Translations under genes and position numbers: made by a program
The notes under the pieces: model-generated
The model's input: the letters and a program-made list of their open reading frames with translations, nothing else
The model's database searches: none
Told to the model about the DNA's origin: nothing
Shown here: positions 30,665 through 62,149 of the stretch, piece by piece
How the letters are laid out: each line of letters begins with the position of its first letter
Position numbering within the stretch: the stretch's first letter is position 1
Assembly: GCA_013265495.1 (NCBI GenBank)
Contig: MU058037.1
Coordinates: forward strand, 1,799,498-1,863,497
Source: Vicugna vicugna
Taxonomy: Eukaryota
Direction of reading: 5' to 3'
Length of the DNA stretch: 64,000 bases

Positions 30665-31100
30665 CCTATTACTGTGTGGCAAGCAGTATGTTAGGCATTA
30701 TGGGAAAAATGGCGAAAATGCAGCATTTTTTCCCTTCAGGGGTTCATAGTTCAACTGGGGAGTCATATACCTATATAAATGATAGTATAATGAGATAAGC
30801 ACCTTAACTGCATTATGAATGAAGTGTGGTCGAAGCTCAGAATAGGGAGCAACTAACTATTTTGGAGTTGCATTAGGGTTGACTTTTGAGCTAAATCTTT
30901 AAAGATCAGTAAGGGATTCCTACACAGAAAAGAAGAGACAGAGACTATGTGCTAGGCAGAATTCTAGATACTTTGGAGGAAGTCTTAATCTAATAAAAGA
31001 AACAGACATAGATGTAAACTATAGTATGAGGCAGCTTGCCTGCCAGTCCTACTGTTCTAGAAGCACAAAGTGCAATGAAAAGAGTGAGATGTTGAGATTA
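30665..31100 (-). mobile_element. L2 LINE 3' fragments
   Basis: TACTGTGTGGCAAGCAGTATGTTAGGC...CCCTTCAGGGGTTCATAGTTCAACTGGGGAG reverse L2 tail. Confidence 0.55.
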
Positions 31101-32242
31101 GTCTGACCTGGAGGAGTGCTTCTTAGCTTTCATGTCTACAAACAAAATTCCTGTACAAACATCTCTTTTTTGTGGTCCAGAATATAATGTAGGTCAGTAA
31201 ATTCCCTCAAAGAAAGTTGACCAGACAGCAAAACTGCTTGGATTACATTATATTAAAAAAATCCATCAGTTCTACCTTTTGATGTGTGGAGAACACTCAA
31301 TGAATGTCTCCCTCCATTAACTTGGCATAGATGTCATCAATCCTAAGAATTAGATGAAAGGTCCAGCTAGGCAGTTTTATTTATAGTCCACTAAAATAAC
31401 AACATATCATTATGTTCTTGTCAGGTTTAATAGAGGCAACTATAGGGTTTGCTTGTTTTGAAAATCATTCAAGCCCAATAATTACCCTCTGTTTATTAAA
31501 TAAATCAGATTGCTCACTTCATGGTCAGCTTTCTCAATTTTCCTCATATAAATGCCTAATCATAAGCTGTGAGTACTTTTTAAGCTCTAAAAATCTATTT
31601 TGACATGATTTTAAGTTTCTGTCCTAAAAGGAACCCTCTTCCTAGTTAATAATGCATTATTTCTATTAGAGTTTGGTAGTCTTGTCAAATGGACTTACAC
31701 ATTATCCATTCATCCACTTATCAACCCATCTATTCACATCATCATTAATCTTTGGCAATTGCACATGTGTGTGGAGAGCTATCCTCAGGTTGTAGTCAAT
31801 CTAGAACAACCTGATCCTTTTTGCAGGGGAATCTCACATTTCTTAGGATAACTCAAGGAGGTGGCCTTCCTGGTCAGTGCTAAAAACCACCCTTGTGCTC
31901 ATAAACAAACCATCCTCAATCAGCCAGCCTTTTTTATCATCAAAGCAAAGTGGGAAAAACCAGCTTCTCCTCTTTCACACACATTCCTGAAACCACATGT
32001 CACCATTTTTGACATTGTGTCCCCTTAATGATTTCCCTTAATGTTCACTGTGAACTGATTTGATCTGAATAAAAATGCATGAAGTAGAGGCACAAGGCAG
32101 GGTTTGTCTTTACACTGCCAAGTTTCTGAGTGAACTGTACACCTACCTTCATCTATTCTTGCATAAGAATTTACAGAGCACTTAGGCCTGGGGATGCTGA
32201 AAGGAGCAAGCTGGTCTCTGCTTTTATGGACTGCAAATTCTA

Positions 32243-32280
32243 TATAAGTACCGCGCGCTAACCGATTGCGCCACTGGAGC
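32243..32280 (-). pseudogene. Tailless retropseudogene of the tRNA-Ile(TAT) 5' exon (5' half)
   Basis: Reverse complement GCTCCAGTGGCGCAATCGGTTAGCGCGCGGTACTTATA matches the recalled mammalian tRNA-Ile-TAT 5' exon through anticodon+1; no 3' half or B box; perfect 16-bp TSD TGGACTGCAAATTCTA at 32227-32242 and 32284-32299; no poly(A). Confidence 0.93.
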
Positions 32281-32604
32281 TTCTGGACTGCAAATTCTAA
32301 TAGGGGAAACCCAACTTTAATAGACTTATTCTCAGAGGATATTATGAGAGCAGAGAGAAAAAGACCTTGTGACTGGGAGACTAAGTTTTGCAGAAAGAGT
32401 AATTGGCCTGGGAGAAAAGCAGAATATACAAAACTTAATATCCCCCTATGAAATTCATGGTGGTGCAAGAGGGCATGGGAGGTAAACCTAGTAGATATGC
32501 ATGGCAAGATTATATTCTGAAACATTATCCTATGTTTCTTTCCCTACTATTTCCTGCTGCTCATACTGATGCCTCATTCAAATAATCATTAGGGTATTCC
32601 TGAC

Positions 32605-32985
32605 AGATGCTGTCAGAACAGAATTTGCAGAAGTGACTGGGATTTTTTGCCACAGTCCCCACTCTCTCTCTCTCTCCCCACCTCTCCCAGTGGGCAGCTC
32701 TTAATCAGTGACTGATGGAGTTAGAGGATAAATATTCCAACTCCTTTGCCCCTTGAGGGGGAAAACTCCGAGCAGTGACCTCCATTGTCTCCAGGGGTAA
32801 ACCCTGGGTTAGAGCCAAAGTTACCCTCTTACAGGACTTAGCTTAATATTAAATTCTTGCTTGGCATCCTTCCTTTCCATATTCCAGTTCTTACTCTACT
32901 GCTTTTTTAGGGGAACATGTTTTAATAAATTACTTTCACACAAATTCTCATCTCAAGGCCTGCTTCTGGAGACCCAACATGAGAG
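32605..32985 (+). mobile_element. ERVL solo LTR (LTR16-like)
   Basis: GGATAAATATTCCAACTCC; 3' AATAAATTACTTTCACACAAATTCTCATCTCAAGGCCTGCTTCTGGAGACCCAAC. Confidence 0.7.
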
Positions 32986-33779
32986 AATATTTTACATTTT
33001 CTACTCTCAGGGTACAGTTACTTCAAAAGAAATACAAAGGGGAAAGAAAGGAGTCAATGCTCAGCTTTTTAGGCTCAAAACAGCCTTTTGAGACTCCCAG
33101 AAGAGACAATAATGTTGAGAGTAAAAATTTTTGAGTTGAATAGTGTCAAGATCCAGAACCTCAAAGGATTCAGGACACACAATTTATGACATAAATAAAA
33201 GACAAGAAAAAGTAGACAGGTCAGGTCAGTTTTTCCCACCTGCTTAAATTAGATAGTATTCTTGCAGATTGGTGTGAAAGAGTGGAGGATCAGGAGGTGC
33301 AAATACTGAAGTACATTTTGGTGTGTGTCCCTGAGAATGGATCCTCATGTCTCATTCCTGAGAACTGGTCCTCAAATCCCCATCCTAGCCCTCTCCCTGA
33401 AAGGAATAAATAAGAAGCTGAGTTGGAGGAGGGTAAAGGATGTATGGGGCTGTTTGGTCATGGGAAGGACGGCAGATTGCCCTGCAGATACTTGACAATT
33501 GGAGACTAGAAGGAAATGAGGATGCCTCAGACTCTACCAGCAGAGCTAGAGGATGAAGACTAGATAAGTGGAGCCTTAACTGTTTCAGTAGACCCCAGCC
33601 TGGATCGATTATGACACCTAAATATCACCCACACTGTGGTACATCATGGCTTTTCTACTGGAGTGTGGTAGAAAATTTTGGTGTCCCATACCACACTCTT
33701 TTGGCTACCCTCAGATATTAACTGCAGCTCTGGTAGATAGTTCTTGTGCATACTCTCAGCAAACTACTCTAAGTGTGCA

Positions 33780-49747: not shown

Positions 49748-50320
49748 AAGATGTGGTCTGTGTATACACACACACACACACACACACAAAATGGAATATT
49801 ACTCAGCCATAAAAATAATGAAAGAATGTCATTTTCAGCAACATCTATGAACGTACAGATTATCATGTTAAGTGAAGTAAGTCAGACAGAGAAAGACAAA
49901 TATGATGTCACTTATATGTGGAACCTAAAAAAAAAGATACAATTTTATTTGAAAACAAGAAATACACTCACAGACTTAGAAAACAAATTGTGGTTACCAG
50001 GTGCGAAAGGTAGGGGAGGGATAGCTTAGGAGTTTGGGATTAATAGACTCACATTAGTATATATAAAATAAACACTAAGGACAAGGAACTTACATTCAAT
50101 TTCTTGTAATGAGCTGTAATGGAAAAGAATATAGTTCCCTTGTATAGCACAGGGAACTATATTCAATTTCTTATAATGAGCTGTAATGGAAAAGAATCTA
50201 AAAAAATATATGGATGTATATGTACAACTGAATCACTTTGCTATACACATGAAACTAACATTGTAAATTGACTACACTTCAATAAAAAATAAGAACTAAG
50301 AAAAAATACTAAAAAAAGTA
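49748..50320 (+). mobile_element. 5'-truncated L1 3'UTR (cetartiodactyl-type) with (CA)n
   Basis: AAGATGTGG...(CA)n...AATGGAATATTACTCAGCCATAAAA...CTACACTTCAATAAAAAA and A-rich tail. Confidence 0.9.
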
Positions 50321-54728: not shown

Positions 54729-54851
54729 TTCTTTTTTTTCATATTGTTTTGTGTATATATATATATTTATTTTAATTGGAGGTACTGGAGATTGAACCCA
54801 TGATCTCATGCATGCTAAGCATGCTCTGTACCACTGAGCTATACCCTCCCC
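54729..54851 (-). mobile_element. tRNA-Ala(AGC)-derived camelid SINE (vic-1-type)
   Basis: Reverse GGGGAGGGTATAGCTCAGTGGTACAGAGCATGCTTAGCATGCATGAGATCATGGGTTCAATCTCCAGTACCTCCA plus A-rich tail; A and B boxes present. Confidence 0.88.
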
Positions 54852-60035: not shown

Positions 60036-62149
60036 CACTCAGAGTCTCAATTCTCATGCTCAGAAGAGAATTTGACTGGTTGGCTCAGCCTGGGCCATGT
60101 GTCCATCTGTGGTCTGAGCATCTGTGGCCAGGGGTTTGAGTCATAGGGCATATTAAGTTCAGGATTAACAAGTAAGGCAATGACTAGCAAAGGAGACATC
60201 ATTTTGTTTACATATCTGGATTGGAGCTAAGGCAGTCCAGCATGAGCTATAAGCAACTTGCATAGAGGCTTTATCTTATGCATCATGGTCTCCCAGTGTT
60301 TGGCACATAGTAGGCAGCTAAACAGATGTTTACTACATTGAACATGTACTCAAAAAGAAGGAATGTATTTAGAAATTCTCCATCTCCTTACTCAACTTCA
60401 CAGCATAGATACACAGAGCTAGCCTCTGCATTGGTATCACATTCAAAACTAATGTCACGTAAACTGCTTGAGTGAACAAGAAAGCCCATGCCAAGTCTAC
60501 AAGTGCTTTACAATTACTTTCTTCAAAGAAATGATCCATACAGTTTGGAAGTTCCAACTTTCAAATTCTTTGTGTAGTATTGTCCTAAAAGTGTATCCAC
60601 AGTTAAGGTTTTCTGTATAGTCACATTAAGGTTTAAGAAGAGTCTCCTTTGCTTAAGCATAAAATCATTTAGTTGGATCATTTCTTAATCCATAAAGTTT
60701 TTACTCTTCTGACAATTCACCTATGATAGAAATAGTTTATGAACTGGTTATGAAAAGTCCATTTAGAAGATCAAATAGCAGATGTCAAGATATCAGATAT
60801 GAAGTTTTAAAAAATACAATAAATAAATATTTTTCTTTATAAAAGCCTTGCCTATTTTTCTTTTAATAACTCCTTCAAATATATTCTAAATTAAAAGCAA
60901 GCATCTATAAACTTTTAAATGGTTAATTTTTACTTCTTTTTTCTCTCAATTCTATATGGCATTTATTATTCTCTTTTATCTAATTATATGTCTATGATGG
61001 TGTCACCCTTCTATAATGAAGCATATTTTGAGAGGCCTTTTGAATGATGGAGGTATGAAAATTTCAAAGGTCTTCATTAAATTCAGCTACAGGCAGAAGA
61101 AAAAATATGAGCCATGATCCTCAAGCCCAATTGGTTTCATGTATTCTAAATTTAATTCACATCCCATGACTTCGTCACTTTTTACTCAGTTAAAAGTATC
61201 CTATTCATAGATTCAATCATCTTATTAAGATCTGGAAAACATTTTTCATACTTTAACTCCACTACTGAAACACACTCTTTCTTCTTGCCTATAAAAGCTG
61301 GCACCATCTCAGTCCTAAAAAGGAAAATTCATCCCTAAAGAAAATTTCAGTGGCAAATTTAAGCACTTTAAGTATCTTGCTACCAATATTTTAAACTTTT
61401 TTTCATTTAAATTACATTCTGAATCACTTAAGGCCCTGAATTGCTAAGTAGAACAACAGTATGGCATGCTTTTTCCAATATCCATTTTGTATTTTAGGGC
61501 CTTGTGATATTAAACCTATATGGAAACCCCTAATTCAATGTATTTTTGGCCAGGCTGTCATTGACAGTCTTTTGGCCAGGCTGTCATTCTCTGCCCTTGG
61601 TCCCGATGGTCCTTGGTGAGCGACTTCATTGAGAGTCTGCGCTTGTATATGCTCTGTCCTTTGAGCATACAGAGAGGAGCGTTCTGGAATGAATCAAATG
61701 CACTGTCTTATGGCAGGTCTGTAACTTCTTCCCTCTCTTCATAGCTCTACAGAGATAAAGCAACTAATATTTTGAGTGACCTTTTGCACTTACAGTTCCC
61801 ATCTGTTGTGGCCTGAAATTACCATCTAAGTTCTTGCCATGTGAGGCTCTGCAGGGTTCCCCTTGATCTGTCAACCAAGCATGAGCAGTTATACAAATAG
61901 CACACAATTTCAAAGGCAGACAGGCTGGCAGAATCAGCCTCCATTTGCCCATTCTTTTACCATGTTATAAAACTAAGCTGTTCCCGTCTACTGCCCACAG
62001 ACAGAGGCCTTTTTTAAATTCTAGCAAACCTGATCCCAGGCACTTGCCAGCAAAGTCTTAGTCTTGTTAACTGATACTGGTAATGAAGTGCATCTGAAAC
62101 CAAGCTTCTTATAAGCAAAAGGTATCTCCATTTTCAGATCAAGTTCTTT

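Follow-up and report, generated by a model that had tools for sequence, protein, structure and literature searches.

On the minus strand of the stretch of Vicugna vicugna DNA analyzed here (64,000 nucleotides, referred to as the window), a short tRNA-derived insertion occupies positions 32227-32299. Read from 32299 to 32227, it consists of TAGAATTTGCAGTCCA, the trinucleotide GAA, GCTCCAGTGGCGCAATCGGTTAGCGCGCGGTACTTATA and a second TAGAATTTGCAGTCCA, followed by TAA. The two outer elements, on the 5′ side (32284..32299, minus strand) and the 3′ side of the insert (32227..32242, minus strand), are TSD copies identical at 16/16 positions. Between them lie 41 nt. The larger part is a complete tRNA-Ile(TAT) 5′ exon (positions 1-37, 38 nt; 32243..32280, minus strand), which has 0 mismatches to the genes and is identical to the 5′ exon in each of the genome's five Ile-TAT genes, all of which have introns. 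The remainder is GAA (32281..32283, minus strand), which we read as the pre-tRNA 5′ leader, that is, as transcribed bases upstream of tRNA +1. The exon ends with A37, which directly abuts the second TSD with no A-run in between and no oligo(A) tail. This border is ambiguous by 1 nt, as the next base, T, is common to the TSD and the intron. Perfect 16-mers repeated <100 nt apart occur at 3 places in the window and in 0/20 block shuffles. The initial annotation had described a tailless, TSD-flanked retrocopy with a perfect 16-bp TSD, no poly(A) and five intact CpGs in CpG-poor DNA, and both the description and its coordinates proved correct.

The 5 CpGs of the 41-nt insert give an observed/expected ratio of 1.58; the ratio is 0.095 and 0.097 in the two 5-kb flanks and 0.109 over the whole window. 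The fragment contains the A-box region and is without a T arm and without a B box, so that transcription as a tRNA gene is not expected. ARAGORN made no call on the fragment and, of the 8 weak Rfam matches in 31000-33500, 0 overlap the insert site, a silence that is expected since the fragment is half a tRNA. The copy has no evident function and is probably a small inert by-product of L1. The insertion target, ...CCTAT/TAGAATTT, has T at the first W followed by a purine/A-rich run, and thus matches TT/WAAAAWW approximately, not perfectly. The nick site proposed earlier, TT/AGAA, requires the first T of the duplication to be assigned to the RNA; taken literally, the site is TAT/TAGAA.

Each of 20 public sequencing runs, from 8 studies and under 4 organism labels, holds 0.99 of 115 words sampled from window positions 31700-32800; 14 of these runs carry a flag marking them as a possible source of the assembly, and the other 6 are unflagged. 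Hardly any of these words occur in the runs of organism E. Since the insert and its junctions account for an estimated ~8% of the words, a run with only the empty allele should score lower, and the Ile-TAT insertion therefore looks widespread. The initial annotation had considered a polymorphic insertion; no sign of an empty allele or of polymorphism was seen in the 20 runs, where contigs show presence and not the absence of an alternative allele. A search for a paralogous empty site with the flanks (31950-32650) gave matches elsewhere in the genome only to the tRNA part.

The 2.03-Gb genome was searched for further Ile-TAT sequences with an exhaustive scan for the 38-nt pattern, allowing <=3 mismatches (12 places), and with similarity searches that returned 17, 15 and 17 places. 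The union of these searches comprises 18 places, every one of which was read, and they divide into 5 intact genes with 19-20-nt introns and 13 retrocopies. The genes differ both in the bases just upstream of the tRNA and in the start of the intron: GAA and TAGCAG in L003 (G000:C6739:1224039), AGA and TGGCAG in L006, GGA and CAGCAG in L007, CAT and CAGCAG in L009, and GTG and AGACAG in L011. It had been proposed that GAA is the leader of a source gene, to be recognized by GAA upstream and an intron starting with T; L003, one of the five genes, has exactly this combination. The bases at the splice site are predicted to be unpaired in the L003 pre-tRNA (P >=0.90) and to lie in a loop in 4/5 genes, which is a thermodynamic fold prediction only.

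All 13 Ile-TAT retrocopies are flanked by TSDs and carry 1-4 extra nt between the TSD and tRNA +1. The expectation that 3′ ends of sibling copies would pile up at position 37 was borne out, as 11/13 copies end there (the copy at 32227-32299, hereafter L001, together with L002, L004, L005, L010 and L012 to L017), though the 38-nt pattern is blind to copies that end before position 37, so that this proportion is biased upward and should be read as an upper estimate. The other two are L032, which ends at intron +4 to +6, and L008, which passes through the intron into the 3′ exon. Neither spliced retrocopies nor copies of the 3′ exon only are present among the 18 places. Mismatches to the exon number 0 (L001, L002 and L004), 1, 2, 3, 4 (three copies) or 5 (two copies). 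The family spans a range of ages, with L001 as one of three undecayed members.

Leaders in the retrocopies match the upstream bases of present genes, GAA those of L003 and GGA those of L007. In 6/11 copies the leader is ambiguous at the TSD border, and L010 (GGT) and L015 fit no present gene. A repeat finder had offered a different reading of L001, with GAA as part of a 19-nt TSD with 1 mismatch in which GAA faces TAA, and this was rejected since siblings elsewhere carry the same GAA. L001 alone would allow an origin of GAA from the target; it is the recurrence of GAA in L002 and L005, which have unrelated flanks (the 3′ flank of L005 is ATG), that identifies it as leader.

Because the Ile-TAT paralogs differ in their intron starts, the first bases of the TSD can be compared with the intron of the gene that the leader points to. 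Among the 11 Ile copies that end at A37, the next base is T in six, C in four and A in one; T and C both occur as the initial intron base of Ile genes in this genome. Five copies have an unambiguous leader, and in each of them the TSD opens with the same two bases as the intron of the gene that the leader indicates: a GAA leader goes with TA (L001, L002 and L005) and a GGA leader with CA (L004 and L013). If G-U pairs are allowed, 2-3 nt of pairing to the intron start of a leader-compatible gene is possible in 10/11 copies, the exception being L015. The start of the L001 TSD shares 0 nt with the exon end and 3 nt (TAG) with the first three intron bases of L003, an agreement that is relevant only if the template kept its intron. 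Taken as a whole, the match between TSD and intron start suggests that the intron was still attached to the template. Two copies of other tRNAs behave similarly. The TSD of the Tyr copy L064 shows 7 contiguous nt of pairing that span the exon-intron boundary of L045, the gene matched by its leader, and in the Arg copy L084 the TSD starts with GAG, the intron start of L075. The possibility that the first T or C of the Ile TSDs was copied from RNA after a canonical Y/A nick was rejected as a sole explanation, given that the 5′ flank has the same base in 10/10 cases and that this base is C four times.

A census of other tRNAs was made with 20-nt 5′ probes, with which early truncations are detectable too. 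For Tyr-GTA, the best-matching 30 of 47 matches were read and comprise 12 genes, 1 degenerate gene-like locus (L050) and 17 copy sites, two of which (L072 and L073) are one duplicated locus. All 17 carry leaders. In 9/17 sites the end clearly falls within the intron (+3 to +7), with L065 ambiguous; 5 sites (four independent) end at 35/36, 1 ends in the D loop, and L070 lies outside the 16 resolved sites. Among 16 of 29 Leu matches read (6 Leu-CAA genes and 3 spurious matches), four Leu-CAA copies end at A35/A36, the Leu-CAA copy L125 continues into intron-like sequence, and the Leu-CAG copy L114 ends in the anticodon loop. The pile-up at the exon end that had been anticipated for Tyr-GTA and Leu-CAA as well thus failed to appear: G37 stands next to flank sequence in 0/16 resolved Tyr sites and is kept in 0/4 of the Leu-CAA copies. 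All 18 Arg-TCT matches were read, with 5 genes, 2 spurious matches and 11 copies, of which 8/11 end with A37, two show an odd TCT duplication and one has an uncertain end. Lys-CTT served as an intronless control, for which 20 scattered matches of 57 were read (2 genes, 1 full-length copy, 1 spurious match and 16 tailless copies). All 16 tailless Lys-CTT copies have leaders, of 3-8 nt except in L101, whose leader reaches as much as 12 nt with an uncertain boundary, and 15/16 end at A37/A38 of the anticodon loop. The base that follows the copied part is A in 5/8 of the Arg-TCT copies and in 12/15 of the Lys-CTT copies.

The degenerate Tyr-like gene L050 (G000:C1757:92066; upstream bases GCAC) appears to be the source of at least 8 tailless copies (L051-L053, L058, L067-L069 and L074), all of which consist of leader, 5′ exon and the first 3-6 intron bases (AGGTAAT or AGGTGAT), and which resemble a very small SINE family without tails, driven by a master of its own. 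Two Arg-TCT copies, L085 and L088, have CTTCTTCTA in place of the exon sequence CTTCTA, with an extra TCT at the junction that is perhaps the result of slippage at initiation. In two others, L078 and L080, the 5′ flank shares 6 and 5 nt, respectively, with the exon end (CTTCTA and TTCTA), upstream of the canonical position of the L1 nick, which would imply either a non-canonical nick or an RNA aligned across the nick. L123 (G000:C3564:4200822) is a full-length copy of Leu-CAG type with a leader and a 15-nt TSD (2 mismatches), without A-tail and without CCA, and looks like an entire precursor copied without a tail.

We consider it likely that L001 is a tailless retropseudogene of the L1 type, derived from a tRNA-Ile(TAT) precursor that was neither processed nor spliced and on which reverse transcription was primed in the loop at the 5′ splice site. 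What we observe is a leader and an exon between TSDs, and the existence of L003; from these we infer four steps. A primary Pol III transcript of an L003-type gene would have kept its 3-nt leader and its intron. In the nucleus, this transcript would have met the L1 reverse transcriptase at a nicked, A/T-rich target, ...CTAT/TAGAATTT. The nicked DNA end may then have paired internally with this RNA, at the U-A-G with which the intron begins and which lies in the open loop around the 5′ splice site. Synthesis of cDNA would have started at A37 and proceeded through the leader to its 5′ end. On this account, the copy ends at the exon boundary because the primer landed there and not because the RNA was cut there. 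The involvement of L1 is itself probable, and the features that point to it are solely the TSDs (8-21 bp in the siblings) and the A-rich targets.

The main competing explanation is that a 5′ leader-exon fragment cut by TSEN and ending with A37 was reverse-transcribed by L1 from its end, which would make L001 the fossil of a splicing intermediate, as the initial annotation had proposed. This account would explain why the insert is exactly leader plus 5′ exon with its 3′ end at the 5′ splice site, why A37 is the last tRNA base in 11/13 Ile and 8/11 Arg-TCT copies, and why neither spliced copies nor copies of the 3′ exon only occur among the 18 Ile-TAT places. RNAs composed of leader and 5′ exon exist in cells and depend on TSEN, according to the summary of earlier work in PMC7527594 (Hanada, 2013), and a recent preprint derives the tRNA 1-37 pieces in tRNA/L1 chimeras from pre-cleaved halves (10.1101/2025.02.02.635956). 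However, the same pile-up is present in intronless Lys-CTT (15/16), and because copies with a leader and an end in the loop are the rule there, a TSEN cut is not needed for the pattern. Tyr and Leu-CAA copies never keep G37, although the Tyr fragment is the best documented in cells, and 9-10 Tyr copies extend into the intron; as many copies contain intron bases, uncut precursors appear to be common templates. Across the tRNAs compared, copy ends track the loop's A residues (A37 for both Ile and Arg, A36 for Tyr and for Leu-CAA, and A37/A38 for Lys) and not the splice site as such. The junctions point the same way. With an RNA ending at A37, 6/11 Ile copies, L001 included, share no base with the primer, whereas with the intron in place 10/11 have 2-3 nt of complementarity; the TSDs that start with C (4/11) are odd for an L1 target and fit introns that start with C. 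The 5/11 Ile copies that share 1-3 nt with the exon end could have been primed by a cut RNA ending at A37. On balance we regard a TSEN-cut template as unlikely for L001, and the Lys-CTT pile-up, the missing G37 in Tyr and Leu-CAA and the match between TSD and intron argue against taking the 3′ end as the mark of a cleaved 5′ exon. Broader still is the suggestion that the 11 Ile-TAT and 8 Arg-TCT leader-exon copies together form a germline fossil record of TSEN fragments, with the intron-like TSD starts reflecting nothing but L1 target preference. We hold this to be rather doubtful; if it were true, by-products of splicing would reach the nuclear L1 machinery often enough to be inserted into the genome.

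Truncation of the precursor in the anticodon loop by a nuclease other than TSEN, or by decay, before L1 copied it, whether or not an intron was present, would account for a loop pile-up that is common to intron-bearing and intronless tRNAs, and the 2025 preprint (10.1101/2025.02.02.635956) favors tRNA halves as templates. We nevertheless find this very improbable. The leaders indicate that the templates were nuclear precursors and not halves of mature tRNAs, and as all copies carry them, cytoplasmic cleavage of mature tRNA (e.g., by angiogenin) is excluded as a source; the match between TSD and intron start and the junction-spanning complementarity of L064 both need downstream RNA to be present. 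Noll et al. (2015; PMC5322556) saw no truncated intermediates, an observation that concerns 5S and U2 RNAs only. An assembly artefact or a duplication at the DNA level in place of a retrocopy is barely credible in view of the presence of the sampled words in the 20 runs, the flanks that are unique in the genome, and 12 sibling insertions with the same anatomy at unrelated sites. Priming within an uncut precursor has its own difficulties. The pile-up at position 37 is very tight (Ile 11/13, Arg-TCT 8/11), and the UA at positions 36-37 should prime as well, yet the UA/CA at intron +1/+2 is always included. The purine run AG at intron +2/+3 can be offered as the reason for this preferred landing site, but it is a post hoc explanation.

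Tailless retropseudogenes of tRNAs and other small RNAs were reportedly described by Schmitz and colleagues in 2004. Doucet et al. (2015; PMC4476161) cite that study for L1-mediated pre-tRNA retropseudogenes. According to Noll et al. (2015; PMC5322556), such tailless retropseudogenes are truncated at single-stranded regions, the target consensus is TT/WAAAAWW, the insertion site is complementary to the last 2-18 nt of the RNA that anneals to it, copies of unprocessed tRNAs are included in the class, and internal priming is favored. L001 shares the TSDs, the lack of oligo(A), a 3′ truncation in a loop (here in the anticodon loop, at the 5′ splice site), the A/T-rich target, the origin from processed or unprocessed tRNA and the internal-priming explanation. 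Nothing essential differs. Particular to this case are an intron-bearing source, which places the breakpoint at the 5′ splice site, and Ile-TAT paralogs that differ in leader and intron start. The Ile-TAT copy thus belongs to an already described class, and its interpretation as a splicing intermediate is the less supported reading.

Two other kinds of RNA resemble the insert in composition. The 5′ leader-exon fragments mentioned in PMC7527594 (Hanada, 2013) likewise consist of leader and 5′ exon. As summarized there, they are RNAs made by TSEN, whereas the evidence from L001 favors an uncut template, with the shared end set by the priming site; in the literature searched, no paper was found that links leader-exon fragments with LINE-1. 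The tRNA/LINE-1 chimeras of the 2025 preprint (bioRxiv 10.1101/2025.02.02.635956) also carry roughly tRNA positions 1-37, picked up by the L1 machinery. They are fused to L1, mostly in antisense orientation, and are ascribed there to twin priming on pre-cleaved halves. In contrast, L001 stands alone and has a leader, which halves of mature tRNAs lack. Tailless copies of intron-bearing tRNAs could therefore serve as a natural experiment on whether L1 uses pre-cut RNA halves, as the preprint argues, or primes inside intact RNA, as favored by Noll et al. (2015). Such paralogs carry two tags, since the leader names the source gene and the intron start lies just past the breakpoint. TSD bases that track the intron of the leader-named gene would mean that the RNA was uncut when primed, and the small sample analyzed here points in this direction.

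Three further elements of the window were recorded. The only tRNA called by ARAGORN in the window is an Ala-AGC at 54777-54848 (minus strand). It heads an abundant SINE family, with 3700 first-look candidates, 40 of which were scored at 87-93% identity over about 95 nt, and for that reason it was dropped as a candidate intronless control. At 50097-50198 (plus strand), a 36-nt direct repeat with 1 mismatch flanks a 31-nt perfect palindrome (atagttccct...agggaactata), an arrangement suggestive of a small inserted hairpin with a long duplication. At 61544-61589 (plus strand), the 19-nt direct repeat TTTTGGCCAGGCTGTCATT, with a spacing of 26 nt, is probably a small local duplication.
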